Shown here: positions 14,282 through 54,124 of the stretch, in pieces
Numbering within the stretch: the first letter of the stretch is position 1
Layout: each line of letters opens with the position of its first letter
NCBI GenBank assembly: GCA_016214285.1
Contig: JACROV010000079.1
Coordinates: 6,855 to 70,854, forward strand
Direction of reading: 5' to 3'
DNA: 64,000 bases
Source: Candidatus Omnitrophota bacterium
GTDB taxonomy: Bacteria > Omnitrophota > Gorgyraeia > Zapsychrales > Zapsychraceae
The notes under the pieces: generated by a model
What the model was told of the DNA's origin: nothing
What the model saw: the letters and a program-made list of their open reading frames with translations, nothing else
Databases searched by the model: none
Program-made: the position numbers and the translations under genes

Positions 14282-14472
14282 TGACCGAATTTGAATTGCC
14301 CGGGCGACAGGTGAATTCAGTCGGTGCCGACTGAATTTGGACTGCCCAAGCGACAGGCAAATTCAACCGACATCGGCTGAATTCGAATTGCCCGAGACGT
14401 GAGATGAATTCCGCAGACGTCTGCGGAATTGCCCGCGGCAGGGACGCGGGGAAAAGCGGCGGAGGGAAAAGG
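14267..14472. repeat. Array D1: four GAATT-flanked 25-nt palindromic hairpins separated by (t)gaattgcccgggcgacag units, ending in a G-rich tract
   Basis: Hairpins gaattcggtcattaatgaccgaatt, gaattcagtcggtgccgactgaatt, aattcaaccgacatcggctgaatt and gaattccgcagacgtctgcggaatt. The terminal gaattgcccgcggcagggacgcggggaaaagcggcggagggaaaagg recurs at 16578 and 18011. Confidence 0.75.
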
Positions 14473-15204: not shown

Positions 15205-15297
15205 GTGACGAAACTAAATGAGAAATATGTCTTCGAAATTTTACGTGACAACCCCGATTTACTACGTCAACGATAACCCGCGCATCGGGCACGCGTA
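15205..15297 (+). pseudogene. Displaced, diverged 5' fragment of metG ([26 protein letters not shown])
   Basis: About 85% nucleotide identity to the true metG start at 18634 ([26 protein letters not shown]). It ends in a stop after 30 codons. Confidence 0.7.
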
Positions 15298-16605: not shown

Positions 16606-16716
16606 ATTGCCCGGGCGACAGACGAATTGAGTCGGTGCCGACTGAATTGTAGTGTAAATTTGAATTCGTCCCGACGTATCGTCGGGACGAATTGCCCGCG
16701 GCAGGGGGGGGGGGAT
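16578..16716. repeat. Array D2: three GAATT-flanked palindromic hairpins plus a gaattgcccgcggcagg(g)n tract
   Basis: gaattccaccggcgccggtggaatt, gaattgagtcggtgccgactgaatt and gaattcgtcccgacgtatcgtcgggacgaatt, then gcccgcggcagggggggggg. Confidence 0.75.
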
Positions 16717-18637: not shown

Positions 18638-20154
18638 AGACTCCATTTTACGTCACAACTCCTATCTATTACGTCAACGATAATCCACACATCGGGCACG
18701 CGTACACGACGATCCTTGCTGATGTTTTGGCGCGTTACCACCGTAACGAGGGCGATGAAGTCTTTTTCCTGACGGGTCTGGATGAGCACGGGCAAAAGGT
18801 CCAGCAGGCGGCGCAGAAGCGTGGAGTTCCCGAGCAGCAGCATTGCGACGAGCTCGCGCCGCGGTTTTCCGACCTTTGGAAGAAGCTCGAGATCCAGAAC
18901 GACGATTTTATCCGCACCACCGAGCCGCGGCATATCAAGGCCGTCCAGGCCGCGCTGCAGAAAGTGTATGACGCGGGGGACGTTTATACGGATGAATACG
19001 AAGGCTGGTACTCGGTCGCTGAGGAACGGTTCATCACCGATACCGAGAAAGATTCCGGACATTTCCGCGACGTTAAAAAACTAAAGGAGCGCAATTATTT
19101 CTTCAAGATGAGCAAATATCAGCAAAAGCTCATCGACTATATCAACGCCCATCCGGAATTTATCCAGCCCGAACATCGCAAGAATGAGGTCTTGGGATTT
19201 TTACGCCAGCCGCTGGGGGACCTGTGCATCTCGCGTCCCAAATCGCGCATGGGCTGGGGCATCGAGATTCCTTTTGATAAAGAGTATGTCACCTATGTCT
19301 GGTTCGACGCGCTGATCAATTACATCACGGCATCGGGATATTTGGTAGATGAGAAAGAATTCAAGAAGTGGTGGCCGGCGTCGGTCCATTTGATCGGCAA
19401 AGACATTTTGACGACCCACGCGGTGTACTGGCCGACGATGCTTTTTTCATTGGGGCTGCCGCTGCCGAAAACCATCTTTGCCCACGGCTGGTGGCTCATC
19501 GGCGAAACGAAAATGAGCAAGTCGTTGGGGAATGTCGTTGATCCTTTAAGTTTGGTTGACCAATACGGCGTTGACCCGGTGCGCTATTACCTGATGCGCG
19601 AGATGGTCCTGGGGCAGGACGCCAATTTCACCATGGAATCGTTCATCAAACGCTACAACAGCGACCTGGCGAATGATTTCGGGAATCTTTTGAATCGTGT
19701 CAGTGGTCTTATTGGAAAATATTTTGACGGCTGCGTTCCCAAAGAAGGTCAGGCGTGGGCGCCGGATAAGGAGATCAGGAAGGTTGCCGACGGGCTGGCC
19801 AAGAATATCGAAGAGTTGATCAATGGCATGCGCGTCCACGAGGCCCTTGAACAGGTTTTGGTGTTGATCCGCAACACCAACGTGTATATGGAACACCAGG
19901 CGCCTTGGAAAGAGGCGAAAGAGAATTTGGAACGGGCGGGAACGATCCTTTATACAGCAACGGAGGCGCTGCGCGTCAGCGCGATTCTGCTTCTTCCGGT
20001 TATGCCCGCGAAGGCGAATACGGTTTTAGAGATTTTAGGAGCGGTGGGGACAGAGCCGTGCTGGGGGCAGCTCAAGGCCGGGGCAAAATTACAAAGCCAC
20101 GACGCGCTTTTCCCGCGATTAGACGCTGAAGGCAAGGTTATAACTAAGAGTTGA
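18634..20154 (+). CDS. metG: Methionine--tRNA ligase (short form)
   Basis: HIGH motif (PHIGHAYT), KMSKS, connective-peptide zinc-knuckle region and an anticodon-binding domain. No C-terminal EMAP domain. Confidence 0.95.
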   Translation: [506 protein letters not shown]

Positions 20155-25446: not shown

Positions 25447-25480
25447 TATTTCGATAGTATGCTATAATCTCTCCCGTCAA

Positions 25481-27307
<1,827 letters not shown>

Positions 27308-31454: not shown

Positions 31455-31632
31455 TCAAAATTCGAAGCACGAAATCCGAAATTCGAAACAATACCAAAAC
31501 CCGAATGATCTAAATCTGAAACAGAGGGTTTCAATCGTTGTTGGAATTTAGCATTTAGAATTTGTTTCGTGTTTTCCGCCAAAGGCGGATCGGCCTCTGG
31601 CTGACGAGCTTCGGATTTCGAATTTAATTAAA
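31455..31632. repeat. MITE-like element, family A copy 3
   Basis: ttcgaagcacgaaatccgaaattcgaaacaa ... ttgtttcgtgttttccgccaaaggcggatcggcctctggctgacgagcttcggatttcgaattt. Confidence 0.7.
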
Positions 31633-40054: not shown

Positions 40055-40867
40055 TTACGTCCGTTCAGCGGTAATGGCCAGTGTCAGCACACCCACGGTC
40101 CCCGCCCCGGCGTCTTTGAGCACGCGTGCCGCTTCGGAGGCGGTCGCCCCGGTCGTCAACAGATCGTCGATGAGCAGTATGTTCTTGTGCTTGAGGTTGT
40201 TAAGTTTTCTTATTGTAAAAGCGCCCTTTATATTTGTCCAGCGTTGTTTTTCGTCCAGAAAGCTCTGGGGACCGGTATGGCGGACGCGCCGCAAATGATT
40301 CCCCTCCGGGGCCAGAGGAATCGAGAATTCCCTGGCGAGCTCTTGCGCCAGCAACTGGGCCTGGTTGTAGCCGCGTTCACGCGATCGGGTTGAAGATAAA
40401 GGGATAGGGACGATTGCGTCAAACTGCCCCGTATCGAGGCCGTATTCCTTAATAAAAGAGATCATCACTTCCGCGAAAAGGCGGCGCAATTGTGTTTTTT
40501 GGCCGTATTTGAACCGGTGGAGGAGGTCTTTAATCGGGTCTTCATAGAGACACGCGCTCCAGGCGAAATCGAACGAGGGTCCGGCTTTGCGGCATTCTTT
40601 GCAGATGTTTGTGGCAGATATTCCAAGATGCCGGGAACATTTGCGGCAAAATGGCGGGCGGTTGAACACGATTGCGGCGCGGCACGGCGGACAGACTCCG
40701 GACCCAGGGGGATGCGCGGTATAGTGGGTCGAACAGACAAGACAGTGCGGGGGATAGACCAGATGACCCAGACCTTGTACGAGGTCCTTGAACACGGGCG
40801 TATCGTAACATCTCAAGCCACAAGTGTCAAACCGGATTTTTTGTTGGCCATAGGTTATGGCCAACAA
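40055..40867 (-). CDS. comF: ComF-family phosphoribosyltransferase (competence protein ComFC-like)
   Basis: N-terminal Cys4 zinc finger and a C-terminal PRTase motif LLIDDLLTTGATA. Confidence 0.8.
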   Translation of the reverse strand: MLAITYGQQKIRFDTCGLRCYDTPVFKDLVQGLGHLVYPPHCLVCSTHYTAHPPGSGVCPPCRAAIVFNRPPFCRKCSRHLGISATNICKECRKAGPSFDFAWSACLYEDPIKDLLHRFKYGQKTQLRRLFAEVMISFIKEYGLDTGQFDAIVPIPLSSTRSRERGYNQAQLLAQELAREFSIPLAPEGNHLRRVRHTGPQSFLDEKQRWTNIKGAFTIRKLNNLKHKNILLIDDLLTTGATASEAARVLKDAGAGTVGVLTLAITAERT

Positions 40868-41085
40868 CCCTCACGTTTGTTTCGTTTTGTTCATCAAAAA
40901 CTCAAAACGAAACAGTGAGGGTAGTCATCCCCCGATCGATGTTCTATAAAAGTTGAAAGGGGGATTTCTTAAGGGGTATTTTTTAGGGTATTTTTTATGA
41001 TTTGAACAAAATTGTTTTTCGTGTAGAATATGGGCAAGAATTTATCCTCCCCCGCCGATTCCCCCTCCAGCAGAAAGGGAAGACT

Positions 41086-41793
41086 ATGCATCCGCCGCAA
41101 AAATATCCGACGGCCATTTGCCATTGGCCAAAAGAAGACCGCCCGCGGGAAAAAATGATGCAATATGGAGAGCAGGCCTTAAGCAATTCCGAACTCCTCG
41201 CCATCTTGCTCCGCACCGGCACCAAAGGCCAAAGCGCGCTGGACCTCGCCCGAAAAGTCATACACAAATTTCAAACCTTCCGGAACATGAGCCACACCGA
41301 CACGCGCGATTGGCTGGAGTTTAAGGGCGTCGGAACCGCCAAAATCGCCCAGATCAAAGCCGCGCTTGAAATCGGCCGCCGTTTTCGTGAAGACGAAACC
41401 CGTCTCGAGCGCCCGCAAATCAAATCCGCGAAAGACGTCGTTGAAATCCTGATGCCCCAGATGCGAGATCTTAAAAAGGAAGTCTTCAAAGTCGCATTCC
41501 TCAATTCCCAAAACCGTATCATTGCCATCGAAGATATGGAGGAAGGCACCGTCAACCACGCCGCGCCCATCATCCGCGAAATCTTCCAGCACGCCCTGCA
41601 GCATTTTGCGGTGTCGATTATCTGTGTTCACAATCATCCTTCCGGAGACACGAAGCCAAGCCCAGAGGATCAAATGTTCACCCAGAAATTAATGGAATCT
41701 GGCCAAGCATTAGATGTCAAAATTACGGACCACATTATCCTCGGCAATGGTCGATACTTTGCTTTTGTGGACGATCTGAACGCCATAGTATAG
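41086..41793 (+). CDS. radC: RadC-family JAB/MPN domain protein
   Basis: UPF0758 N-terminal helix-hairpin-helix and JAMM motif HNHPSG. Confidence 0.85.
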   Translation: MHPPQKYPTAICHWPKEDRPREKMMQYGEQALSNSELLAILLRTGTKGQSALDLARKVIHKFQTFRNMSHTDTRDWLEFKGVGTAKIAQIKAALEIGRRFREDETRLERPQIKSAKDVVEILMPQMRDLKKEVFKVAFLNSQNRIIAIEDMEEGTVNHAAPIIREIFQHALQHFAVSIICVHNHPSGDTKPSPEDQMFTQKLMESGQALDVKITDHIILGNGRYFAFVDDLNAIV

Positions 41794-41842
41794 TAGGTAA
41801 AATATTGACTCTTTACCTACTTTATGATATATTTTACCCACT

Positions 41843-44623
41843 ATGAATGAATCGCAAACCCGTAAAGAATATATTAACAAAGCCTTGGCCAGGGCCCAAT
41901 GGACCCCCAATGGGTCCTGCCGGTACACCGAAGAATTTGAAATGGACAAGGTTTGGAGTTCCGGCATTGCCGAACCAACGACACCCTATGGCGCAAGCCA
42001 TGAATATGCCGATTATTTATTGCTTGGACGTGATGAACAACCGCTCGCCATTGTTGAAGCTAAAAGAACCACTAAAAATGCGCGCATAGGCCAGCAGCAA
42101 GCCAAGGGCTACGCCGAAAATATCAAAGCCAAATTCGGCATCGAACCATTTATATTTCTGACCAACGGAGAAGATATTTTATTTTGGGACCGCCAGCGAT
42201 ATCCTCCCCGCCTTGTTTACGGATTTTTTGAACGAAGGGATTTAGAGCGGCTCTATTTCCAACGACAGGAAGCCGCCCAAAATTTTTCCGGCATCAAAAT
42301 CAATCCCGAGATCGCTGATCGCGATTATCAAGCTGAAGCCATCCGTACCGTATTAACGGGAATACAAAACGGCCGCCGCAAGTTTCTATTAGTCATGGCC
42401 ACGGGTACCGGAAAAACGCGTACGACCATGGCCATCATCGATTGTCTTTTAAGAGCCAAGCGCATTAATACCGTTTTATTCTTAACAGACCGTAAAGTCC
42501 TTCGTGATCAGGCCTACGGTAAAAAAGGATATCAGGGATTTTTCAGCGAAAGTTGCGGTAGAATTACATCCGGAAAATTTAACGCGGAAAAGCGTCTTTA
42601 CGCGGCCACCATCCAGACGATGATGGAGTGTTACAAAGACATTTCGCCGGGTTTCTTTGATCTGGTGATTGCGGATGAGTGCCATCGCTCCATTTACAAC
42701 AAATGGAAAGATGTTTTATCCTATTTTGATGCCCTTCAGATTGGCCTGACCGCCACACCTGCCCAGTTTATTGAAAGAGATACCTTCCGTTATTTTGAAG
42801 TGGACTTAAAAAATCCTAAAGACAACCTTTTTAATTATTCGTATGAAAAGGCTGTTGATGAAAAACATTTACTTCCCTTTGTTCCCTACCACGCCAAAAC
42901 GTCTTTTCAGATCAAGGGGCTGCGAGAAGACGAAATCCCTCTGGCAGTTAAAAAGAAATTAGTAGAAGAGGGCAAAACCCTCGATGAATTAAACTTCGAA
43001 GGAACCGAGTTTGAAAAACGCTTTACCAATACCGGCACCCACGAGGCCATGGTCCGGGAATTTATGGAGGTTTGTTATAAAGACGATACCGGAACGTTGC
43101 CCGGTAAAACCATCATCTTTGCGATGACGAAGAATCACGCTTACCGCTTATTGGATGCCTTTGATCAGCTCTATCCCCAGTATAAGGGAAGACTCGCCGA
43201 GGTTATCGTTTCCGAAGATTCGCGGGCGGATAATTTTCTTGGGCGTTTTGAAAATGACAGCTATCCCAGGATCGCTATCTCGGTGGACATGCTCGACACG
43301 GGTATCGATATCAGAGAAGTTACCAATTTGGTCTTTGCCAAACCGGTCTTCAGCAAGATCAAATTCTGGCAGATGATCGGCCGCGGGACACGCACCCTCG
43401 ACAAGAACAATATGAAGCTCTGGTGCCCGCAGAAAGAGAATTTTTTGATCATCGATCACTGGAATAATTTCGAATATTTCGGCGAGAAACCGGAAGGAGA
43501 AGTCCCTCCCATGGAGGACGCCGTTACCTCGCGCGTGTTTAAAGTCAAAGTTAACCGTTTACGGTTTTACCTTCATCGCTTGGATCAGAAAGAAATCGAA
43601 GGCGTCAAAAAAGAGCTGCGAGATATGATCGCAAAACTCCCCCAGGATTCCATCAGCGTTAAAGAAAGAAAAGATGTCCTACAAAGACTGGCGAGTCCTC
43701 AATTCTGGACCAATGTGGATACCGACTATTTGTATGATCACGTGGCCCCTTTGATGCGTTTTTTGGAAGATATCAATTACAACGAATATTCCTTTATTCT
43801 GAAGTGTGAACAGCTTGAACTGGCATTTCTTAATAAAGATGAGCGCAGAATTCTTGATCTCAAAGACGCTGTTAAAGACGATTTGCAATTGTTGCCCATG
43901 ACGCTTCAAGTCGTCAAGCGTGAACAAGAAACGGTCTTCAAGACCGCCTCTGACGCCTTTTGGAGTGGTCTTTCGATCGAAGGCATCCGTGAGGCCAAAC
44001 AAAAATTGTCGCCAATTATGAAATATAAACGCCAGAATCCGCGTGAAATCATTCAATTCGATCTGGATGACCAGATCATTGAGCGCAAATGGATCGAGTT
44101 CGGGCCCAACGGCGAAGGGGCGTATGTCCACATTTATAAAGAAAAGGTCGAAAGGCGGGTCAAAGAATTGGCGGATAAAGAGTCGGCCATTATTAAGATC
44201 TGTAATGATGAACCGGTCAATGACCATGACCTGGAGGCCCTCGAAAATACTTTGAACGGGCCGGAGCTGTATATCACGGAAGATAAATTACGTGAGGCCT
44301 ACAGCCAGCCGTCGGGGACTTTGGTTCAATTTATTAAATCAATTTTCGGCAAATACAAATTTAAAAGTCAGGAAGACCAGATCGCCGAAAGCTTTGACGC
44401 GTTTATCATTGCGCACAATTACAATACCGACCAGACGCGTTTTTTGCGCGTCATCAAAAGTGTATTCCTGGCCAAGATCCGCCGCCATGAATTGCTGGAA
44501 ATCGACGATTTCTACGAAGGGCCGGTGAAGGAATTAGGCGGAGACATCGCCGACCACCTTTTTTCGAAGCAACAAATGGATGAAGTTATTGAATTCTGCA
44601 ATGAGCGGGTACTGGTGAAATGA
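41843..44623 (+). CDS. hsdR: Type I restriction enzyme R subunit
   Basis: HSDR_N nuclease domain, SF2 helicase motifs (MATGTGKT, DECHRS) and a C-terminal domain. AT-rich. Confidence 0.85.
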   Translation: MNESQTRKEYINKALARAQWTPNGSCRYTEEFEMDKVWSSGIAEPTTPYGASHEYADYLLLGRDEQPLAIVEAKRTTKNARIGQQQAKGYAENIKAKFGIEPFIFLTNGEDILFWDRQRYPPRLVYGFFERRDLERLYFQRQEAAQNFSGIKINPEIADRDYQAEAIRTVLTGIQNGRRKFLLVMATGTGKTRTTMAIIDCLLRAKRINTVLFLTDRKVLRDQAYGKKGYQGFFSESCGRITSGKFNAEKRLYAATIQTMMECYKDISPGFFDLVIADECHRSIYNKWKDVLSYFDALQIGLTATPAQFIERDTFRYFEVDLKNPKDNLFNYSYEKAVDEKHLLPFVPYHAKTSFQIKGLREDEIPLAVKKKLVEEGKTLDELNFEGTEFEKRFTNTGTHEAMVREFMEVCYKDDTGTLPGKTIIFAMTKNHAYRLLDAFDQLYPQYKGRLAEVIVSEDSRADNFLGRFENDSYPRIAISVDMLDTGIDIREVTNLVFAKPVFSKIKFWQMIGRGTRTLDKNNMKLWCPQKENFLIIDHWNNFEYFGEKPEGEVPPMEDAVTSRVFKVKVNRLRFYLHRLDQKEIEGVKKELRDMIAKLPQDSISVKERKDVLQRLASPQFWTNVDTDYLYDHVAPLMRFLEDINYNEYSFILKCEQLELAFLNKDERRILDLKDAVKDDLQLLPMTLQVVKREQETVFKTASDAFWSGLSIEGIREAKQKLSPIMKYKRQNPREIIQFDLDDQIIERKWIEFGPNGEGAYVHIYKEKVERRVKELADKESAIIKICNDEPVNDHDLEALENTLNGPELYITEDKLREAYSQPSGTLVQFIKSIFGKYKFKSQEDQIAESFDAFIIAHNYNTDQTRFLRVIKSVFLAKIRRHELLEIDDFYEGPVKELGGDIADHLFSKQQMDEVIEFCNERVLVK

Positions 44624-45660
44624 AATCTTTTTCCGATCAATATTTAAACAGAATACGTATCACGCCGCAATTGTTGAGCCTCACGAACGCCTTGTCAGAG
44701 TATAAGGGGAAGGAGGTGTTATATACGCGGCAATCTCCCGATGTCTTGGAGAAGCTCGTCGAGCGGGCTAAAGTGGAAAGCGTCGAATCATCCAATCGTA
44801 TAGAGGGAATTAACGTGAAACACGATCGTGTCGTTGATATCGTCGAACAGCAATCAACGCCGCGCAATCGTCCTGAAGAAGAGGTGGCTGGTTATCGGGA
44901 CGCCCTGGAGTACATTCATGAGAATCACAAGGCCATCCCGGTTGCGCTCAATACGGTATCTTTGTTTCACCAGTTTTTATACAAGAACACCAATCAGACC
45001 GGAGGTGAGTTTAAGTGGGAGGATAATTTGATTATCGACCGGCTCAAGGATGGAACCGAGCGGGTACGTTTCCGTCCGCCTCCGGCCAGCCAAACATATC
45101 TTTATGTACATGAGCTGATGAACGCCTACAAATTTGTATCCAGCCAGCGTAATCTTTCGCCCTTGATATCGATTCCGCTTTTTATCCTGGATTATTTATG
45201 CATCCACCCTTTTAAGGACGGCAATGGGCGCACGGCGCGTTTGTGGGCGCTTTTGCTTTTGTATCACGCCGGTTACAGTGTCGGCAAGTACATCAGTCTG
45301 GAAAGGATTATTGAGCAAAGCAAGGAAACGTACTATGAGTCATTGGAGCGATCATCGCAAGGCTGGCATGACGAGAAGCATAATGTTGAGCCGTGGCTGC
45401 ATTATTTTTGCGGGGTATTGATCGCGGCGTACAAGGAGTTTGAGTCGCGGGTTGGGGTATTCCGCGAAGAGAGCACAAAAACCGGCCAGATTAAAACATA
45501 CGTCAATAAAGCGGTCATTCCTTTTTCTATTTCTGATGTTGAGCAGGCATGCCCCAATATCAGCCGGGATATGATCCGTTTGGTGTTGCGTGAGTTGCGC
45601 AATTCAGGAACAATTTATACTACGGGAAAAGGTCGTGGGGCAAAATGGGTAAAGAAATAG
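44620..45660 (+). CDS. Fic/DOC family protein embedded in the type I RM operon
   Basis: Fic motif HPFKDGNGRTARL and a C-terminal wHTH. 4-nt overlap with hsdR. Confidence 0.8.
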   Translation: MKSFSDQYLNRIRITPQLLSLTNALSEYKGKEVLYTRQSPDVLEKLVERAKVESVESSNRIEGINVKHDRVVDIVEQQSTPRNRPEEEVAGYRDALEYIHENHKAIPVALNTVSLFHQFLYKNTNQTGGEFKWEDNLIIDRLKDGTERVRFRPPPASQTYLYVHELMNAYKFVSSQRNLSPLISIPLFILDYLCIHPFKDGNGRTARLWALLLLYHAGYSVGKYISLERIIEQSKETYYESLERSSQGWHDEKHNVEPWLHYFCGVLIAAYKEFESRVGVFREESTKTGQIKTYVNKAVIPFSISDVEQACPNISRDMIRLVLRELRNSGTIYTTGKGRGAKWVKK

Positions 45661-45723
45661 GGTAAAAAGCCTATTAAGTAGGTAATTTTATATATAAATA
45701 CCCTATTTTTATGGAGGATATTC

Positions 45724-47223
45724 ATGTTAAATCCTGAACTCAAGTCACAAATCCGCCGTTTATGGAACAAATTCTGGGAAGGGGGAATTGCCAATCCCCT
45801 GACCGCCATCGAGCAGATGTCCTATCTGATATTTATGAAGCGCTTGGAAGACATGGACTTCCAGCACAAAAAGGCGGCCGATCGGCGCAATGAAAAATAT
45901 GTTTCCATTTATAAAGGGCAGGAAAACTGCCGCTGGTCTTACTGGATCAATATGCCGGCCGAAGAAATGATCGCCCACGTGCGCGACAAGGTATTTCCCT
46001 TTATCAAGACATTAAAAGACGACGATCATCATTTCAGTCAGTCTATGAAAGACGCGGTCTTTATGATTCCCCGGCCTTCCCTGTTGCAGGAATCCGTGCG
46101 CATCATTGATGAGCTCAATATTACCCAGCAAAATCAGGATACCCAGGGAGATCTTTATGAATATCTTTTAAGCGAACTGAAAACCTCCGGCAAGAACGGC
46201 CAATTCCGCACGCCGCGGCATATTATCCGGATGATCGTGGAATTGGTCAATCCCGTCTTGGGTGACCGGATCTGTGACCCGGCCTGTGGCACCGCCGGAT
46301 TTTTGATCAACGCCTACCAGCATATCCTCAAAGAAAATACCTCGCCCGATGTTCTGGAAGTGGATGAAGACGGCGTACCGCACCATCTGGTGGGGGATAA
46401 GATCACGGATAAGAAACAGCGCGCGTTCTTGAAGGAAAAAGCCCTGCACGGGTTTGATTTTGACACGACCATGGTGCGGATCGCCTTGATGAACGCCGTC
46501 TTGCACGGCATCGACAAACCCAATATCCGCTACACGGATACGCTGTCTAAGACTTACGAAGAAAAAGAAAAATATGAGATCGTGCTGGCCAATCCGCCGT
46601 TTAAAGGCAGTATCGACAAAAGCGATATCTCCGATCGGCTGAAGCTCAAGACCACCAAGACCGAGCTTTTGTTCATGAATCTTTTTGTGGAATTGCTGGT
46701 TACCGGCGGCAAATGCGGGGTCATTGTCCCGGACGGTGTTTTGTTCGGCTCCTCCAACGCGCACAAAGAGGCCCGTACAATGCTGGTCGAGGAAAACGAA
46801 CTGCAGGGCATCATCAAAATGCCCTCCGGCGTCTTCAAACCTTACGCCGGTGTTTCGACCGCGGTGGTGATCTTCGCCAAAGGCGGCACAACTGATAAGG
46901 TCTGGTTCTACGACATGCAGGCCGACGGCTTTTCGCTGGATGACAAACGTACCAAAACCCCGGACAAAAACGACATCCCCGACATCATTGCCCAGTGGAA
47001 CGCCCGTGACAAAAAGAAATCACCCTGCAAAGGCGAGAAGTGGTTCTGGGTGGATGCGAAAGAAATCCGTGAAAACAAATATGACCTCTCCATCTCCCGC
47101 TACAAACCGGTGGAGTATGAGGAAGTGCAGTATGACTCGCCCCAAGCGATCCTAGCCAAAACCACAGCCCTCGAGGCTGAAATCGCGGGGGAAATTAAAG
47201 AAATTGAGGCATTGTTGAAATGA
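45724..47223 (+). CDS. hsdM: Type I restriction-modification N6-adenine DNA methyltransferase M subunit
   Basis: HsdM N-terminal domain, AdoMet site (DPACGTAGFL) and catalytic NPPF motif. Confidence 0.9.
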   Translation: MLNPELKSQIRRLWNKFWEGGIANPLTAIEQMSYLIFMKRLEDMDFQHKKAADRRNEKYVSIYKGQENCRWSYWINMPAEEMIAHVRDKVFPFIKTLKDDDHHFSQSMKDAVFMIPRPSLLQESVRIIDELNITQQNQDTQGDLYEYLLSELKTSGKNGQFRTPRHIIRMIVELVNPVLGDRICDPACGTAGFLINAYQHILKENTSPDVLEVDEDGVPHHLVGDKITDKKQRAFLKEKALHGFDFDTTMVRIALMNAVLHGIDKPNIRYTDTLSKTYEEKEKYEIVLANPPFKGSIDKSDISDRLKLKTTKTELLFMNLFVELLVTGGKCGVIVPDGVLFGSSNAHKEARTMLVEENELQGIIKMPSGVFKPYAGVSTAVVIFAKGGTTDKVWFYDMQADGFSLDDKRTKTPDKNDIPDIIAQWNARDKKKSPCKGEKWFWVDAKEIRENKYDLSISRYKPVEYEEVQYDSPQAILAKTTALEAEIAGEIKEIEALLK

Positions 47224-47302
47224 AGCTGACTTCATGAAAAAAGAATGAGAATGCGAGATCGGTTCAGGGAGCAGATGAGAAGATAAATGTCTTATATTTT
47301 AC

Positions 47303-48619
47303 CAGTACTGTCCGGTTATAAGTTGAACATTGTCAATTGTTTATCGTTCTCAACGTTCTGGCCGTCGATATTAGTTTCTGTAAGTGCTTGCAATATAGGC
47401 GTTTTGTCGAAAATGGTCACGCTCAAAATTTGTAAAATTGTGTAAAGACTCGGTTTGAGGTTGAGACGTTTTTTGATAATGGCTACGAGCACGTAAACCG
47501 AGATTGCGATCCAGACCTGCGTCTTGACGGCGTTTTGCGATGTCCCGAAGAAAGCCTTGATGCGCAAATGCTGTTTGATCCAACGGAAAAAGAGTTCGAC
47601 TTTCCAACGGCATTTGTAAAGTTGTGCTACGGTAATCGCGTCGACATCGAAATTGTTGGTCAGGAAGGTAAAACGTTTTTTGGTCTCGGAATCGAAAAAT
47701 TTGATCAGACGAAGCTGTTCCGGATAATCTTTGGCTGATTGCACACCGGTTAAAAGAATTGTTTGATCGCACCGTAATCCTGTTGCTTTGTTGACTGGGC
47801 GCGAATAAAGACGCCGGTATTGTGTGTTGGATTTGATCCGGGTAATAAATGTCGCGCGCGCCTGATGTATAGTATACAAACGCGCAAAGTCGAGATACCC
47901 GCGGTCCATGATGTAGAACGATCCGGCTTCGAGGAACAGGATGTCCAGAACGTTTACATCCGCGACTTTTCCGTCGGTGATATTGATAAATGACGGGATT
48001 GGCCCGCGTAGATCCAAAAGCGTGTGAAGCTTGATCGCGCCCTTGCTCTTTCGAAAATGCGCCCATGGAAAAAGCGACAGACACAGGTCGATGGTTGTTG
48101 AGTCCAGCGCATAAACTGTATTTTCCAAATCGACCCCGAACGAATCTTCGCGATAAAGTTCGCGGGCTTGATGGATCAGAACCTGCGCGAAGTCTGCGTA
48201 AATGTGCCAGTCGCGATTCTCGTTGGCATCGGCCAATGTGCTTTTGGATATTGAGCCGCGAATGCCCATGTGATAAAGTTTCGGCTGCATGAATCGCAAG
48301 CACGCGGTGATGTCGCGCAAACTCTCGCGATAAGTCAATTGCGCAAAGCTCATGCACAAAAATTGATCCATGCACGAAAAATTCTTGATCCTGTAGTCGC
48401 CTTGATGCCGCGCAACACATTTGCGGAATTCGTGCAGTGGCAAGAATTCCATGACTTGAGAAAAGATTGTTTTTCCCGTGTTCATTGGACGCTCCTTTGT
48501 TGGTAGGAGCGCCAAAATAACACGCATTTGAATTCAAATCGATTAAAAGGTTTTTATGCATAACATAATAAAAATTATAGAGTTACAAAATTCAATTAAA
48601 AGTTAACCGGACACTACTG
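47303..48619 (-). mobile_element. Intact IS4-family insertion sequence (~1.32 kb) with imperfect terminal IRs and a 9-bp target-site duplication ATATTTTAC
   Basis: Left end CAGTACTGTCCGGTTA.., right end ..TAACCGGACACTACTG. Direct repeats atattttac at 47294-47302 and 48620-48628. Single DDE transposase ORF. Confidence 0.85.
47316..48527 (-). CDS. IS4-family DDE transposase
   Basis: IS4-type N-terminus (MNTGKTIFSQVMEFLP..FSCMDQFLCMSFAQLTYRESLRDI) and DDE residues (LDSTTID, IMDRGY, KVELFFRWIKQ). The alternative start M15 gives a 48485 end. Confidence 0.85.
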   Translation of the reverse strand: MRVILALLPTKERPMNTGKTIFSQVMEFLPLHEFRKCVARHQGDYRIKNFSCMDQFLCMSFAQLTYRESLRDITACLRFMQPKLYHMGIRGSISKSTLADANENRDWHIYADFAQVLIHQARELYREDSFGVDLENTVYALDSTTIDLCLSLFPWAHFRKSKGAIKLHTLLDLRGPIPSFINITDGKVADVNVLDILFLEAGSFYIMDRGYLDFARLYTIHQARATFITRIKSNTQYRRLYSRPVNKATGLRCDQTILLTGVQSAKDYPEQLRLIKFFDSETKKRFTFLTNNFDVDAITVAQLYKCRWKVELFFRWIKQHLRIKAFFGTSQNAVKTQVWIAISVYVLVAIIKKRLNLKPSLYTILQILSVTIFDKTPILQALTETNIDGQNVENDKQLTMFNL

Positions 48620-49276
48620 ATATTTTACTGGATGAATCTGGAGACTTGGGCTTCGATTTTAGTCGAAAAGGGACGACAAATTATTTTCTTGTCACTTTCC
48701 TTAAATTATGTGACAAATATTCTGCTGGACAGGATATTTACCAGAAAGCTGGTCCCGGTCGATCAAGAAATTGTGTTTATTGCTTCCAAGAGGGAGACAA
48801 ACGCGTTCTTAAACGAGAATTTTAGAAACTACCTCAAAGGTCAAGCGCTCAATACCCATAAGGTTAGATTGCACATTGAGATTAAGACGCCTTCAGAGGA
48901 GAAGGCGTTACAGGCGGTAGATTTTATTAGTTGGGCGGTTTTTAGAAAACACGAGTATCAGGACGGGTCTTATTACGACATGGTAAAAAAGAAAATCGTT
49001 GAAGAAAATCCTTTGTTCCCTTAGAAATGGTAAAGCCTCATTCGCTATTTACGAGGTGCCATTCCGGTACCCCACGAATGAGGACTTACTTACCACAGTA
49101 ACAATCAAAATTTTTGACCGCCCCGACTACTCTTGCGAGAGGGCCCCATGGGCCCTTGTCATTAAGGCGGAACCTTTAAATTTGCGACCGGGGAAACCCC
49201 GATCCACCTCCAATTGCTTGAATTGCTTTAAGTATAGTTTATGTGTGTGTATGTGTCAAGGTTTCATTCAAAGAAG

Positions 49277-49310
49277 AGCCCTCGAGGCTGAAATCGCGGG
49301 GAAATTAAGG
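49277..49310 (+). repeat. Duplicate of the hsdM 3'-end sequence (agccctcgaggctgaaatcgcgggg.aaattaa) immediately upstream of hsdS
   Basis: 34/36 identity with 47166-47201 (hsdM codons ...ALEAEIAGEIKE). Both hsdM and hsdS junctions also share ttgaaATGAAG. Confidence 0.6.
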
Positions 49311-49419
49311 AATAGGGTTATGCCTTTGATGAACAGTGCAACAGGATTTCGTGCCCATCGTATGCTGGAAGTGGTAGTCAAGGGCATAACCCTATTAAGG
49401 AAAATGAGAAATTATTGAA

Positions 49420-50607
49420 ATGAAGAATCGGACCGTGGCCATTAGTGACCTTTGTCAACAAATTCGAGGAGTCTCCTATAAAGGAGGGGAAGCAATCGAT
49501 ACTCCCCGAGATGGTTATTTGCCAATTTTAAGAGCGAATAATATTTGCGATGGAGAAATCTCTTATGATGATTTAGTGTTCGTGCCTCAAAAGTATGTTA
49601 GCAAGACGCAGGTTTTACAGAAGAACGATGTTGTTATCGCGGCATCGAGCGGAAGTCTCGAAATTGTCGGTAAAGCTGCTCAAATTAAAGGTGAATTCAA
49701 AGGAAGTTTTGGGGCTTTCTGTAAAGTTTTAAGGCCCAATTCAGATGTTGACTCTGCGTATTTCTCCTATTTTTTCAAAACGCCGTTTTATAGACATACA
49801 ATTTCACATCTTGCGGCAGGGGCAAATATTAATAATCTTAGGAATGAACATCTTGATAATTTGAAGATTCCTTTACCTTCTTTTGAAATTCAAAGAAAGA
49901 ATGTGGCATTTTTGTCGAAGGCTGAATCCGCTCTCGAAAAACGCCGCCAGACCCTGCGCCTGGCCGACGAATTCCTCAAATCCGTGTTTTTGGAGATGTT
50001 CGGGGAGCCGGGAGCCAATTTAAAGGATTTTAAAACCAGTCCCATTAGAGATTTGGTTAAAAAAGTTATTAACGAGGACCCCCCGCGATACCCGGCCAAG
50101 AGTTATTCTTACGTGGATATTTCATCTATAGATAATCAATTAAAGAAGATAACTGAAACTAAGCAGATTCTAGGGGAGGATGCGCCTGGCAGGGCAAGAC
50201 AACTTTTACAAGCACAAGATATTCTGGTTTCAACAGTGCGCCCGAATCTAAATGCTGTTGGCGTTTTACCAGATGGGTTAAGCAACCCTATAGGATCAAC
50301 GGGGTTCTGCGTATTGCGGGCCAATAGGGAGCTTGTCCTGCCAGAGTATTTATTTGAAATTTGTAAGACGTCTTTTTTTATTAAATCTTTAGTCAATGTT
50401 GCAAAAGGAGCCAGTTATCCGGCTGTCAGCGATAATGATATTTTAAGACTATCAATACCAGTGCCGTCTTTGCCTGAACAGCAAAAATTCGCCGAGCTTG
50501 TCCAGAAAGTCGAGAAACTCAAAGAAAAACAAAAACAATCCGAAACCCAACTCCAAAACCTCTTTAACTCCCTCATGCAAAGGGCGTTTAGGGGGGACAT
50601 ATTATGA
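49420..50607 (+). CDS. hsdS: Type I restriction-modification specificity subunit
   Basis: Two target-recognition domains separated and followed by conserved coiled-coil repeats (TLRLADEFLKSVFLEMFG; LPEQQKFAELVQKVEKLKEKQ). Confidence 0.85.
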   Translation: MKNRTVAISDLCQQIRGVSYKGGEAIDTPRDGYLPILRANNICDGEISYDDLVFVPQKYVSKTQVLQKNDVVIAASSGSLEIVGKAAQIKGEFKGSFGAFCKVLRPNSDVDSAYFSYFFKTPFYRHTISHLAAGANINNLRNEHLDNLKIPLPSFEIQRKNVAFLSKAESALEKRRQTLRLADEFLKSVFLEMFGEPGANLKDFKTSPIRDLVKKVINEDPPRYPAKSYSYVDISSIDNQLKKITETKQILGEDAPGRARQLLQAQDILVSTVRPNLNAVGVLPDGLSNPIGSTGFCVLRANRELVLPEYLFEICKTSFFIKSLVNVAKGASYPAVSDNDILRLSIPVPSLPEQQKFAELVQKVEKLKEKQKQSETQLQNLFNSLMQRAFRGDIL

Positions 50608-51614
50608 AAAAAGTGTTTGTATTGGGGGCTGGTACAAGTCGTGATTTTGGGTTCCCATCGGGCATTGAGTTGATGAAGGAAATACATTCGTCCTGGGAGC
50701 ATCCCGATGAGATTGCTATTAATAATTATGTAAATATTATGGAGAAGTTAAAAAAAGAATTTCGATCTCATCCGAATCGAATCGCTGTGGAGAAAATCAA
50801 GAAATTATCGTATAGGTTTTATTTATCGGGTGCCGATTCTGACTTTTTAAGTCAATGCAAAGATGAGGTTGACCTTCAATTTGGAAGACTGACCATTTTG
50901 AATGCAATTCTTAAAAAGGAACAAAAGACGAAACAGTTTGGCGATGGTACACTTTTCAAGTGGGAAGAGAACTGGTTGAGGGTTTTGTTTGGAGAGGAGT
51001 TTCGTTTCGAAAATGTTGAACAATTAAAAAAGAAGTTAGAAACAGAGCAATTTTATTTTGTGATATTCAATTACGATCGCTGTGTGGAACATTTTTTATA
51101 TACGGCCATTCAAAATTATTACGATTTAAAAGGTGAAGACACAAAAGACATTATTAATAAAATGCGCTTTTATCATGTGTATGGACAGCTGGCTCCTTTG
51201 GAGTGGCAGCCAGAAGGCAATCCTATTAGATTCGGGGATGCTTTTGAAGGTGTATTCGATGACTTGTATCGTTTCGTTCCCAATATTAAGATTGTCAATG
51301 AAGACAGAGGTGACGTCGAGGACATCAGACATAAAATTGGCGCGCAAATCAGAGATGCCGGGAAAGTATATATTTTGGGGTTTGGTTTTCAGGATCCAAA
51401 TTGGAAGCTGCTCGGGATTGATGAATATAAAAAACATCGTGCCAATGGATTGCCTTGGTCAGCCGGCAAGTTTCACTACACGAATTTTGGTTTAAGCAAA
51501 CGACGTAGGGAACATATTCGGGGAAAACTATTTGGTCTCATATCCAATGGCACCGATTCGGCGAGATCATACGATTCGACGGTTTATGAATTCATGCATC
51601 ACGATTATACGTGA
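50604..51614 (+). CDS. SIR2-like (SIR2_2 family) protein, candidate NAD+-depleting defence effector or sensor
   Basis: N-terminal VLGAGTSRDFGFPSGIEL (GAGxS...GxP), catalytic-region FNYDRCVEH (T/NYD motif), FYHVYGQL (lHG-like). Overlaps the hsdS stop by 4 nt. Confidence 0.65.
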   Translation: MKKVFVLGAGTSRDFGFPSGIELMKEIHSSWEHPDEIAINNYVNIMEKLKKEFRSHPNRIAVEKIKKLSYRFYLSGADSDFLSQCKDEVDLQFGRLTILNAILKKEQKTKQFGDGTLFKWEENWLRVLFGEEFRFENVEQLKKKLETEQFYFVIFNYDRCVEHFLYTAIQNYYDLKGEDTKDIINKMRFYHVYGQLAPLEWQPEGNPIRFGDAFEGVFDDLYRFVPNIKIVNEDRGDVEDIRHKIGAQIRDAGKVYILGFGFQDPNWKLLGIDEYKKHRANGLPWSAGKFHYTNFGLSKRRREHIRGKLFGLISNGTDSARSYDSTVYEFMHHDYT

Positions 51615-51662
51615 TATTCAGGTCAGACCTCATACAAAGGGCGTTTAGGGGAGAAATATAAG

Positions 51663-52430
51663 ATGACTCTTCTGATTAGCCGAATCATTTTAACGCTGGT
51701 AATAGTCTATGTTACATATTTAATATGGACTTCGAATGTCGATCTGGTTTTGTGGTCTAAGAATGCGATTCGCGGGTGGTTGCCAATCAATAAGGAATTC
51801 CCAGAGAGTGTAAAAACAGAGCAAAGCCCCGAGATGATTAAAACATTAAGGGATAATGCAATGTGGTCTGTGGAAGGGTTTCAACAAGGGGATCGAAGGA
51901 GTTACCTAACATTGTTATCATGGGCAAGTAACCCAAAGGATACTGTAACAAAGAATTTGATTATATCTGCAATAGAAGAAATTAAAGACGTTTACGGGCA
52001 AACTGATGTTATGAGACAGCATATTGAACCAGTCCGCAACCCCCATCGTTGGTGGATTTGTAAAGAAAGCATCCCTTCTTGCCATGATGGATTTGAAGAA
52101 CCAACAGGTTACAAAGCACAAAATATAATTAACCACCTTGCAAGAAAGTTGTGGCAAGAACGCGGAAGGGCCGCCAGTATTTTAAGAAATATCAAGACGG
52201 CTTCGGATAAAGATCGGATTAATGAGGATGCCACTATTAAAGAACAACTTTTCGATAAGCTTATAGAGCGTCTGAATCTCGAGAAGGAAAATAGCCTGTT
52301 TGTTGCTAAAATGGCGTTTGAGACATATAAAGATTTGACCGGATTTTCGTCGGACGGCGTTTTTGATTTCGCGGGCGCGATCAAAGACTGGGAAACGCGA
52401 AAAGAGAAAATTTTAAGAATGAATTTTTGA
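51663..52430 (+). CDS. Hypothetical protein with a single N-terminal TM helix (255 aa)
   Basis: TM helix at residues ~4-22, then a ~230-aa soluble domain with no recognised motif. About 48 nt after the SIR2 gene. Confidence 0.55.
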   Translation: MTLLISRIILTLVIVYVTYLIWTSNVDLVLWSKNAIRGWLPINKEFPESVKTEQSPEMIKTLRDNAMWSVEGFQQGDRRSYLTLLSWASNPKDTVTKNLIISAIEEIKDVYGQTDVMRQHIEPVRNPHRWWICKESIPSCHDGFEEPTGYKAQNIINHLARKLWQERGRAASILRNIKTASDKDRINEDATIKEQLFDKLIERLNLEKENSLFVAKMAFETYKDLTGFSSDGVFDFAGAIKDWETRKEKILRMNF

Positions 52431-52897
52431 AAATATTTATTATGGAAGATAAATCTGGGAAAATCATCATCACGCGCAGGATGTGGCAGCTTTTGGCCGC
52501 CGCGGGGGTTGTCCTGTTGACCATTTTGGTCACGTATTATCCCTTGAACCCGCGTTACGGGCTGTGGGTGGGCGGGCAAATCTTCTTTATAGTTTTTGCC
52601 CTGGCCTATTTGCGAGAAGAAAGGAGGGCGACGCGATCGCCGGATTCCAACGCGGTCATCAACTGGAATCTGATCGAAGCGGGTTTGCTTTTAGCGAGCA
52701 TCTTAGGATATTCTGTTCTGGCTTATGTCTGTCACTTTAGCAGGGAAGTTTTTTATGCCTATTTTTATACCGGCGCGTTGGGATTGCTGGGCGGAGTGGC
52801 GCTGGGCGAATGGTTGTGGCAGAATACCAGGTTAAAGGAACTTGATGAGACTTGCCGCCAACGGTATTGGGCAAATTATAAGGATTCAATTCTTTGA
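52427..52897 (+). CDS. Small integral membrane protein (4 predicted TM helices, 156 aa)
   Basis: Four hydrophobic segments. The start overlaps the stop of the upstream gene (ATGA). Confidence 0.55.
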   Translation: MKIFIMEDKSGKIIITRRMWQLLAAAGVVLLTILVTYYPLNPRYGLWVGGQIFFIVFALAYLREERRATRSPDSNAVINWNLIEAGLLLASILGYSVLAYVCHFSREVFYAYFYTGALGLLGGVALGEWLWQNTRLKELDETCRQRYWANYKDSIL

Positions 52898-52990: not shown

Positions 52991-53041
52991 TTACCCGGAT
53001 CTCCGGAGCGGGTGGGAAAACAGTCACTATGTCCGACGATA

Positions 53042-54124
53042 TTACCAGAAGAATTGACGCGATAGATGCGCAGCTCAAGCATCTGAGGGGGTTTCTTTGA
53101 CCTGCCGCAGAAGGAGGAGTCCATCCGTTCCATCCAGGAGCGGATGTCGGAGGCGAATTTTTGGGACAATCCCGGCCAGGCCAACAAGATCATGCGCGAG
53201 TTGAAGTACCTGAAAAGCTGCGTTGAACCCTTCGATCAGAGCACCAAACGGCTGGAAGATATCCGTGAATTAACCGTTCTTTCCAAGGATGACCCGGAAT
53301 TTTTGAATCATGTGCAGGAAGAATTGGCCCAGCTAGAATCCGAGGTCAACAAGCTTGAACTTCAGAGTATCCTTTCGGGACAGTTCGACGCCAATAACGC
53401 GATCCTGAGCATCAACGCGGGCGCGGGCGGGACCGAATCCTGTGACTGGGCGAATATGCTGCTGCGCATGTACACCCGCTGGGCGGAAGACAACAACTGC
53501 AAGGTCAAAGTGCTGGATATCCTCGCCGGTGAAGGGGCAGGGATCAAAAACGCGACGTTGAGCATCGAAGGCGAGATGGTCTATGGTTATTTAAAGGGTG
53601 AAAAAGGCGTGCACCGTCTGGTGCGTATTTCGCCTTTTGATGCCAACAAAAGACGGCATACCTCGTTCGCTTCCGTGGATGTCATTCCTGAGATCGAAGA
53701 AGACATTGACATCGAAATAAACCCGGGCGACCTGCGCATTGATATCTTTCGTTCCTCCGGACCCGGCGGGCAAAGTGTCAACACGACCGACTCCGCGGTG
53801 CGCATGACGCATTTACCGACGGGAATTGTCGTCCAATGCCAGAATGAACGCTCGCAGTTGCAAAACCGGCAAGTGGCCATGAAAATTTTGCGGGCCAGAT
53901 TGTATGAATTAAAGCGCCGCGAGCAGGACGAGCGCATGGCCCAGGAATACGGCGAGAAACAAAAGATCGAATGGGGCAGCCAGATCCGTTCCTACGTCAT
54001 GCATCCCTACACGATGGTCAAAGACCACCGCACCGACGTGGAAACCGGGAACGTCACCAAAGTGATGGATGGGGATTTGAGGATTTTTATAGAGGCGTAT
54101 TTGAAGGTGAAACCGGAGAAATAG
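53042..54124 (+). CDS. prfB: Peptide chain release factor 2, with a programmed +1 ribosomal frameshift at CUU UGA C (53108-53114)
   Basis: ORF0 MSDDITRRIDAIDAQLKHLRGFL stops at TGA 53111-53113. It is preceded by the SD-like AGGGGG and continues in the +1 frame from 53112 (DLPQKEESIRSIQERMSEANFWDNPG...). GGQ and SPF motifs lie downstream. Confidence 0.9.

Follow-up and report, generated by a model that had tools for sequence, protein, structure and literature searches.

How does an additional gene become embedded in an operon without wrecking its host? For the accessory genes carried by restriction-modification (RM) operons an explanation has been lacking, and the question is raised by a type I RM island, with the order radC followed by hsdR-fic-hsdM-hsdS, in a metagenome-assembled genome (MAG) of Candidatus Omnitrophica. 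The island was analysed within a stretch of 64,000 nucleotides (nt), hereafter called the window. In it, hsdM and hsdS are now 2.2 kb apart, with an antisense insertion sequence (IS) in between, and outside the IS this gap showed no canonical terminator or promoter on the plus strand.

At least two cassettes of one gene each have probably entered the operon, in each case precisely where two neighbouring genes are translationally coupled. Regarding the route of entry, we favour, with a probability of roughly 0.6, an illegitimate insertion of a single gene that duplicates the junction (the pattern termed 'insertion with long target duplication'), after which the arrangement spread by homology.

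The doubled hsdM/hsdS junction

The segment inserted between hsdM and hsdS (47226-49276; 2,051 bp) is bracketed by two copies of the hsdM end, of about 60 bp, together with ATGAAG. Its features are given below (ORF, open reading frame; loci fetched for comparison carry L numbers).

47166-47225, plus strand: junction copy 1, the last 58 nt of hsdM including its stop plus AG, ending in ATGAAG
47220-47237, plus strand: five-codon mini-ORF MKLTS* at the former position of the hsdS start (MKFSS* in L126)
47287-49024, plus strand: DUF3800 pseudogene in a 5' part (47287-47302) and a 3' part (48629-49024), with a 228-nt deletion and a frameshift at about 48703
47303-48619, minus strand: IS4-family IS of 1317 bp, transposase at 47316-48527
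49025-49095, plus strand: hairpin-forming element adjoining DUF3800 on the 3' side; 52/52 positions match L126, with conservation also in L124, L125 and L127
49096-49276, no strand: unconserved rest of the insert, with a minus-strand promoter-like site at 49259-49231
49277-49425, plus strand: junction copy 2 (hsdM 3' stub), in two parts (49277-49310 and 49397-49425), ending in the ATGAAG of hsdS
49311-49396, no strand: palindromic element of 86 bp that splits junction copy 2; arms of 19 bp, flanked by a 4-bp repeat (AAGG)

Positions 47166-47190 match 49277-49301 exactly over 25 nt, followed by a 1-nt deletion (GGGGG to GGGG), and the second half of the junction (47194-47225) recurs at 49394-49425 with 84% identity; overall, the two copies are identical at about 55 of 59 positions. 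The original prediction had described a recurrence of the 34-bp hsdM end at 49277-49310. The recurrence was confirmed but its end was not, as the repeat resumes and runs up to 49425, the whole junction of ~60 bp being doubled. The ATGAAG stop/start sequence noted at both hsdM and hsdS was found to close copy 1 (47225) as well as copy 2 (49425), and the DUF3800 insert of ~2.1 kb proposed at this junction, with duplication of the junction, agrees with the segment delimited here. That the repeat might be a common motif, which would speak against such a duplication, does not hold for the window, where a 29-mer with up to four mismatches occurs at only two sites, both of them the junction copies. 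GAAG terminates both the insert and copy 1, which amounts to 4 nt of microhomology at the border of the DUF3800 insert.

Three close relatives show the same junction without an insert. Two of them, L001 and L002, were found by a genome scan with HsdM, in which they are 93% and 89% identical to the window at the amino acid (aa) level, and the third, L123, also among the closest, by look-up of a homologue of ORF336, a gene of the second insert described below. All three have the order radC-hsdR-fic-hsdM-ATGA-hsdS, with one junction copy and nothing between hsdM and hsdS, and the repeats of the window align to this single copy (L001, L002 and L123 for hsdM/hsdS; L002 for hsdS and its downstream neighbour ORF255). 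Thus, the comparison with hsdRMS loci lacking the insert, which had been suggested as a check, supports insertion with duplication of the junction. Identity of the junction copies to the orthologous junctions is 80% for L001 and 88-92% for L126, and the mutual identity of the copies is at least as high.

The last of these loci, L126, is a contig of 907 nt that contains the hsdM end, the ATGAAG mini-ORF, a 60-nt spacer and an intact DUF3800 gene of 212 aa that is 92% identical to that of the window. As this junction with an intact gene is shared, the DUF3800 insertion is older than the split between the lineages of the window and of L126, and the deletion, the IS and the palindrome represent later decay. 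DUF3800 homologues have 212 aa, and the window copy lacks 228 nt (76 codons). No Pfam match was obtained for the DUF3800 ORF as it stands, but after removal of the IS and bridging of the frameshift it matched PF12686 (E=6e-7; 30.6 bits vs. a cut-off of 21). The window gene is thus read from its sequence as dead, a putative pseudogene of the PF12686 family.

The transposase of the IS belongs to the IS4 family (NCBIfam NF033592, 282 bits vs. a cut-off of 115) and is the sole mobility gene in the island. The element has terminal inverted repeats (CAGTACTGTCCGGTTA and CAGTAGTGTCCGGTTA) and lies after codon 5 of the DUF3800 gene (start at 47287), between perfect 9-bp target-site duplications (TSDs; ATATTTTAC, at 47294-47302 and 48620-48628). 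As its own TSD lies inside the DUF3800 reading frame, the IS arrived later than DUF3800, and it is absent from L126; the later IS hit put forward in the original prediction was thus borne out. Further copies of the IS or of the 86-bp palindrome were found neither in the window nor in the 130-odd fetched loci.

The hairpin-rich spacer of 400 bp that had been described upstream of hsdS does contain hairpins but is not a single spacer: it consists of a conserved element associated with DUF3800, an unconserved spacer and the palindrome in copy 2. The conserved element, of ~75 nt, is kept after the DUF3800 stop in RM and non-RM contexts (L124, 2494-2564; L127, 6637-6706; L126, 856-907) and contains the hairpin GCCTCATTCG..CGAATGAGG. 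The alignment of its four sequences shows almost no variation, which is too few sequences for covariation. DUF3800 genes, for which an RNase H-like fold has been predicted (PMC10910872), associate with structured RNAs (Weinberg et al., 2017; PMC5737381). A conserved hairpin-forming element immediately after the gene is a likeness to these pairs; in contrast, the element described here matches no Rfam model and the gene is a pseudogene. Rfam gave no match for the spacer at E<=10, nor for the whole window at the gathering threshold. A DUF2815 match in Rfam (E=0.17, minus strand) was discarded as weak. The near-consensus promoter-like site on the minus strand (49259-49231; TTGACA-17-TATACT, 11/12) points into the unconserved spacer and could mark an antisense or small-RNA transcript.

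The perfect 14-bp inverted repeat reported at 49312 is present, but one base off, since its arms begin at 49311 (49311-49324 and 49383-49396; two matches vs. 0.02 expected by chance). The arms extend to 19 bp with 95% complementarity, and the fold is strongly stable (z = -3.9).

A second doubled junction at the hsdS end

A second junction duplication, absent from the original prediction, was found at the other end of hsdS, where a SIR2-like gene lies between two copies of the hsdS 3' end, each of ~35 bp.

50571-50607, plus strand: hsdS 3' end, copy 1 (..LMQRAFRGDIL*), in ATGA overlap with the ORF336 start
50604-51614, plus strand: ORF336 (336 aa), the second inserted cassette, in ATGA overlap with the hsdS stop
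51628-51662, plus strand: hsdS 3' stub (LIQRAFRGEI*), ending 1 nt before the ORF255 ATG
51663-52897, plus strand: ORF255 (N-terminal transmembrane helix, conserved C-terminal domain) and ORF156 (membrane protein), no family match in Pfam, PADLOC or NCBIfam

The hsdS end (50571-50602) recurs at 51628-51659 with 91% identity. In L002 the ORF336 gene is absent at this position, and an ORF255 homologue (42% aa identity) comes directly after hsdS, with one copy of the hsdS end. ORF255-related C-termini were also found in L122 and L081 (ORF255-type DNA at 6947-7777 of L002 and at 6255-7418 of L122). On this comparison, ORF255 and ORF156 appear to be the original downstream partners of hsdS, and as relatives of ORF255 come after hsdS in related operons, it may be an uncharacterised accessory module of the R-fic-M-S family of RM systems.

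ORF336 is 100% identical to a protein encoded by a MAG of Candidatus Omnitrophica. It gave no Pfam match at E<1 and weak PADLOC matches to SIR2 (E=4e-4), and 21 of its 48 aligned homologues match PF13289 (SIR2_2). The AlphaFold (AF2) model was confident (pLDDT 89.8), and the top 17 matches in the PDB obtained with it by Foldseek were all defence SIR2 proteins, the best being SIR2-HerA (E=1e-5), KomC, SPARSA, DSR2 and ThsA, with TM-scores of only 0.36-0.53. N156 is invariant in the alignment and H191 nearly so; a catalytic role of the two would be hypothetical. ORF336 is therefore modelled as a divergent defence-type SIR2-like protein. Neither it nor DUF3800 reaches significance with any PADLOC model. 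Homologues of ORF336 outside RM loci (L130 and L131) have no stubs; thus, the stubs originate in the target operon and were not brought by the cassette.

Recurrence in other operons and origin of the stubs

Further phyla, as well as a RefSeq plasmid, show the same footprint; the genes concerned encode YhcG, SIR2-like proteins, a nucleotidyltransferase or unknown products.

L034, hsdM junction: YhcG/DUF1016 gene (PADLOC PDC-S02) overlapping each neighbour by ATGA; its final 35 nt reproduce the hsdM end in frame with 97% identity
L122, hsdM junction: ORF262, then an hsdM stub of ~40 nt
L128 (Iodobacter fluviatilis plasmid NZ_CP025783.1), hsdM junction: YhcG gene, then a stub (22/24 matches, p=0.002) ending on the hsdS start
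L122, hsdS end: hsdS, SIR2-like ORF340, stub, ORF336 homologue, stub, ORF255-like gene
L023, hsdS end: stubs on both sides of SIR2-like ORF369
L040, hsdS end: PRiA4_ORF3 gene, stub, ORF119, stub
L086, hsdS end: nucleotidyltransferase gene and a second ORF, then a stub of 119 nt
L083, hsdS end: ORF336 homologue with an hsdS-type stub of 33 nt on either side, the stubs being of another sequence family

The integration hotspot suspected at this locus is strengthened by the second junction duplication in the window and by these independent cases. Overall, the last 63 nt of hsdS recur downstream on the same strand in 10 of 71 loci, three of the ten being second hsdS genes or assembly duplicates, compared to 1/71 for the opposite strand, 2/64 for the upstream side and 0/71 for a shuffled query. 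In L083, a DUF4238 gene of the same island is bracketed by non-coding direct repeats of 73 nt (9420-9492 and 10603-10669; 86% identical) that are not hsd-derived, and would be another repeat-flanked defence-type gene. A mirror-image case at a 5' end was seen in the archaeal locus L015, where the hsdM 5' end (132 nt, 95% identical) is duplicated ~1 kb upstream (9012-9143 and 10001-10132).

Alternatively, the repeats might have been left by phase-variable shuffling of hsdS, or be due to chance or to errors of assembly. Additional, partial copies of hsdS are indeed present in L032, L036, L055, L057 and L058, and in hsdS invertons and domain movement repeated conserved hsdS segments likewise serve as recombination landmarks (PMC7672463, PMC3077401). 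In those systems, however, target recognition domains (TRDs) are shuffled via inverted or flanking repeats, often with an invertase, whereas here stubs without a TRD, consisting of the last 10-40 codons only, bracket unrelated genes in direct orientation with no recombinase nearby. Not only hsdS but also hsdM is duplicated at its end, the shuffled and strand controls are near zero, and the same junctions were found in independent assemblies (L081 and L082; L083 and L084; L126) and in a finished plasmid. We therefore give hardly any credence to this explanation.

The molecular mechanism that we infer for insertion with junction duplication, and the role that we ascribe to the stubs in expression, are as follows. 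Each insertion would have brought a direct duplication of 35-60 bp spanning the junction. In the first event, a DUF3800 gene with its conserved RNA-like 3' element would have entered at the ATGA overlap of hsdM and hsdS, copy 1 preserving the hsdM C-terminus and stop, and copy 2, the stub, preserving the sequence just upstream of the hsdS start. In the second event, the SIR2-like gene would have entered the hsdS/ORF255 junction likewise, starting on the ATGA that overlaps the hsdS stop. Afterwards, the first cassette decayed through the 228-bp deletion with frameshift, the insertion of the IS4-family element with its 9-bp TSD and the entry of the 86-bp palindrome into copy 2. The duplication may have originated from illegitimate, microhomology-assisted joining or from template switching at the junction, and the arrangement would then spread among related operons through ordinary homologous exchange. 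The stubs may persist because they supply the displaced downstream gene with its context for ribosome binding and stop/start coupling, and only insertions that duplicate this context would leave both neighbours expressed. Selection for the duplicated context is suggested because the distance between start codon and repeat (ATGA or GTGA, or 1-8 nt) is the same for copy 1 as for copy 2 in the window, L034, L122 and L128.

Several observations weigh against this mechanism. Among the 67 loci in which hsdM is followed by hsdS, 55 have the two genes adjacent and 12 have a gap, and a significant hsdM stub was detected in only 3 of the 12 gapped metagenomic M-X-S loci, the other 9 lacking it. Similarly, only one of the four plasmid loci with the order M-YhcG-S has a stub, with no detectable hsdM stub in L129, L136 and L137; four further plasmid matches of YhcG lie outside RM loci. 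Nearly all the comparators are MAGs or metagenome contigs, and 'empty' relatives could have lost an insert via recombination between the repeats. The function of the hsdM stub in the present-day window is uncertain, because copy 2 has GAGA in place of the Shine-Dalgarno-like GAGG of copy 1, and 24 nt separate the palindrome from the hsdS ATG downstream of it. In addition, the two copies are 84-97% identical and not identical, and one of them may come from a donor allele.

In this last case no duplication would be needed at all, the stubs being leftovers of a displaced resident allele, with copy 1 from the donor and copy 2 from the recipient. A donor with M-DUF3800 or S-SIR2 would have recombined by homology on the left, within hsdM or hsdS, and illegitimately on the right, tens of bp before the end of the gene (also termed homology-facilitated illegitimate recombination, or allelic substitution). 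The clearest case for it is L081, in which the upstream hsdS stub of the same SIR2-like cassette comes after a type III-like Res gene and the hsdS sequence preceding ORF337 ends 44 nt before the ATG; by its context, this stub must stem from substitution and not from duplication. Thus, a substitution with its breakpoint inside the hsdS end also yields stubs. The resident hsdS of L083 is without the stub motif, stub 1 there resembling a remnant, and the presence of a ComF-like gene next to the island makes natural transformation plausible. On the other hand, copy 1 in the window and in L126 keeps ATGAAG, which corresponds to the first two codons of hsdS, and therefore the original donor junction itself must have formed inside the M/S junction. 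Moreover, the copies are no less alike than orthologous junctions are, in spite of their divergence, and a pre-existing M-X donor would be needed for each type of cassette. Substitution is on balance unlikely as the general origin, if still worth keeping in mind.

Once present, direct copies might also move the cassettes. They could recombine to release a circle with the gene and one stub, and a Campbell-type single crossover into a similar hsd 3' end would regenerate the duplication. Compatible with this, the unit formed by the SIR2-like gene and its stubs (50560-51654) is 89% identical to L081 and L082, the hsdM copies share an exact block of 25 nt with diverged sequence after it, and the window and L126 are 90-100% identical across DUF3800 and the RNA element compared to ~80% in the adjacent hsdM 3' region. 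However, the latter comparison shows a gradient only, without a sharp break of identity at the insertion junction, and L081 also shares downstream ORF255-like DNA, which is better read as an upstream substitution than as movement of a cassette. In the Iodobacter plasmid (6990-7070 of the L128 locus), the end of the YhcG gene has a 10-nt copy (ATGAATAAAC) of the hsdM-stop/YhcG-start sequence and, 6 nt further on, the 24-nt stub of the hsdM junction; these nested stubs, which such a shuttle could also produce, suggest serial insertion events. As stubs of 24-120 nt with diverged sequences are poor substrates for RecA, and those of different hsdS families (compare the window and L083) are too unlike for homologous transfer, we consider the shuttle decidedly unlikely.

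Integrase-mediated integration, too, typically leaves direct repeats by which the 3' end of the target gene is restored (PMC2853133), and the inserts are ORF-sized and apparently without a promoter of their own. A tyrosine or serine recombinase, integron-like or acting in trans, could thus be imagined to act on the hsdM or hsdS 3' end, the repeats being attL and attR. However, no recombinase domain was found in any ORF between radC and prfB in scans with Pfam, PADLOC and NCBIfam, and a tblastn probe with a single query, of limited sensitivity, detected no tyrosine recombinase in the 64-kb window. Neither was a recognition motif found at the duplicated junction, where the original prediction had suggested searching for one. 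The repeat differs in length (24-119 nt) and sequence between the cases, the stub has no fixed left boundary, and the stubs are not attC-like palindromes. Site-specific integration is accordingly very improbable.

The same comparison separates these inserts from integron gene cassettes, with which they share ORF-sized, apparently promoterless units in one orientation with a repeated sequence between them. In contrast to integrons, no IntI-type tyrosine recombinase is adjacent and there is no attC-like structure, the repeat being a coding copy of the end of a resident gene, without inverted-repeat structure, that varies with the operon family. The cassette exchange raised in the original prediction is therefore unsupported if taken in the integron sense.

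The operon, related systems and meaning

The remaining features of the island and its flanks are as follows.

41002-41793, plus strand: radC (RadC-like JAB), left flank; Pfam RadC, E=6e-40; syntenic with hsdR in L001-L004 (tblastn)
41790-41844, no strand: 'AGTAGGTAA' box palindromes, from inverted-repeat analysis, around a promoter-like TTGACT-N17-TATATT, a third half-site overlapping the hsdR ATG
41843-44623, plus strand: hsdR, 926 aa, full length; ResIII (E=3e-37), EcoEI_R_C (E=5e-24) and HSDR_N; partial match to the EcoAI/FtnUII-type R of NCBIfam
44620-45660, plus strand: fic (Fic_N and Fic in Pfam; PADLOC SoFic, E=9e-40), in ATGA overlap with hsdR
45655-45712, no strand: fic-hsdM spacer with the same box palindromes (ATAGGGTAAAAA, AGTAGGTAATTT, AATACCCTATTT)
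45724-47223, plus strand: hsdM, 499 aa, full length; N6_Mtase (E=2e-61), HsdM_N (E=8e-15)
49420-50607, plus strand: hsdS, 395 aa, full length, two TRDs; Methylase_S in two stretches, PADLOC Specificity_I over residues 1-393
53030-54124, plus strand: prfB with a +1 frameshift site, right flank, core gene (from sequence and ORF); GC 0.54

Core genes bound the island, with lptF/G, the ComF-like gene and radC on the left and prfB on the right, and its GC content is 0.39-0.50 compared to 0.52-0.54 in the flanking core genes. The ComF-like gene (40055-40867), with a double zinc ribbon and a phosphoribosyltransferase domain, and radC next to it adjoin the island; as radC accompanies hsdR in L001-L004, it may be part of the mobile unit. 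The +1 programmed frameshift site of prfB (CTT TGA C, at ~53090-53100) lies upstream of the main ORF of release factor 2 (53144-54124).

The assignment to type I RM follows from HsdR with its helicase/ResIII and N- and C-terminal domains, HsdM with N6-adenine methyltransferase and HsdM_N domains, and an HsdS with two TRDs; an exact-protein look-up of hsdM returned no record. The ATGA overlap of hsdR and fic that had been described was verified (fic start at 44620, hsdR end at 44623), and the fic product has its Fic motif (HPFKDGNGRTARLW) at residue 196. The R-fic-M-S order is widespread, with fic in L001-L004, L009, L013, L016, L017 and L123. Therefore, fic is an old, conserved member of this family and no recent insert (compare L003, L004, L009, L013, L016 and L017). 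No remnant of the hsdR 3' end was found upstream of hsdM (best local score 14); thus, an insertion of fic, if it followed the same route, left no trace.

Boxes of the 'AGTAGGTAA/ATAGGGTAA' type are conserved at equivalent positions upstream of hsdR and hsdM in L001, L002, L122 and L123, and are probably operators for a regulator. A sequence similar to this box (AATAGGGTTA) is seen at the termini of the 86-bp palindrome that precedes hsdS. The 9-mer ATAGGGTWA was not enriched over the window (9 matches with one mismatch vs. 13 expected), so the likeness rests on context only. Other repeats were found elsewhere in the window. An intergenic element of ~170 nt, MITE/REP-like (resembling miniature inverted-repeat transposable elements or repetitive extragenic palindromes), occurs in two copies that are 84% identical (25479-25645 and 31458-31627), with internal palindromes (CCGCCAAAGGCGG, CAGCCTCTGGCTG) and no Rfam match. 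Two more pairs of direct repeats of 50-60 nt (14287-14337 and 16598-16648, 94%; 15238-15297 and 18645-18704, 87%), 2.3-3.4 kb apart, lie in an unrelated gene cluster.

Insertion with long target duplication was reportedly first described for Helicobacter pylori by the Furuta/Kobayashi group. The published cases (Furuta, Abe and Kobayashi, 2010; PMC2853133) share with those described here an RM-linked context, direct repeats of more than 30 bp (here ~60 bp at the hsdM junction and 32-37 bp at the hsdS end) that may include the 3' end of a neighbouring gene and are one copy in the insert-free genome, and an insert without a mobility gene, the IS4 transposase of the window having its own 9-bp TSD inside DUF3800. 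In contrast, the published insert is a whole RM system in the chromosome, the search having asked for R and M genes in it, whereas here single accessory genes (DUF3800 and a SIR2-like gene) entered an RM operon exactly at stop/start overlaps. Moreover, what is duplicated here is the context in which translation of the next gene starts, and one operon can stack several events (L122, L040).

That defence genes lie embedded in type I RM systems is well documented, both by the 'guilt-by-embedding' study covering type I RM, BREX, DISARM and Hma (Payne et al., 2024; bioRxiv 10.1101/2024.01.29.577857) and by cases such as PrrC in EcoprrI and DarTG2 in the RM island of enteropathogenic Escherichia coli (PMC12255303). 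The loci described here are alike in having accessory genes on the same strand between hsd genes, and PADLOC holds Fic (SoFic, PDC-S04), YhcG (PDC-S02) and the nucleotidyltransferase (PDC-M05A). They differ in that earlier studies catalogue genes, the junction duplication as a footprint of insertion being the new element. The text of the 2024 study contains neither 'recombination' nor 'remnant' nor 'hsdS', and its sole 'duplicat' refers to the removal of duplicate protein sequences. In the literature on RM embedding and junction duplication, covered incompletely, no description of the footprint inside operons was found, and a prior one is possible.

It is tempting, if quite unlikely, that type I RM operons are recombinase-free, integron-like capture platforms. 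In such a case, the hsdM and hsdS 3' ends would be portable homology for the entry and exit of cassettes as well as reusable translation-initiation modules, and any ORF flanked by two copies would share the expression of the operon and could move to other operons of its family. The stacked arrangement of L122 (M-X-stub-S-X-stub-X-stub), that of L040 and the nested stubs of the Iodobacter plasmid would be its products.

Embedded anti-phage genes are common in RM, BREX and similar operons, and this context is now used for the discovery of defence genes. The locus of the window is itself a partly decayed example, and it is the recurring footprint that gives it value. The footprint polarises the insertion events and marks the boundaries of the cassettes to the base, and it can be searched for systematically, which finds embedded cassettes together with ancestral empty sites. 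Insertion with long target duplication, described for entire RM systems, is thereby extended to individual genes within an operon, and the footprint suggests a rule by which only insertions that duplicate the stop/start coupling region would survive.

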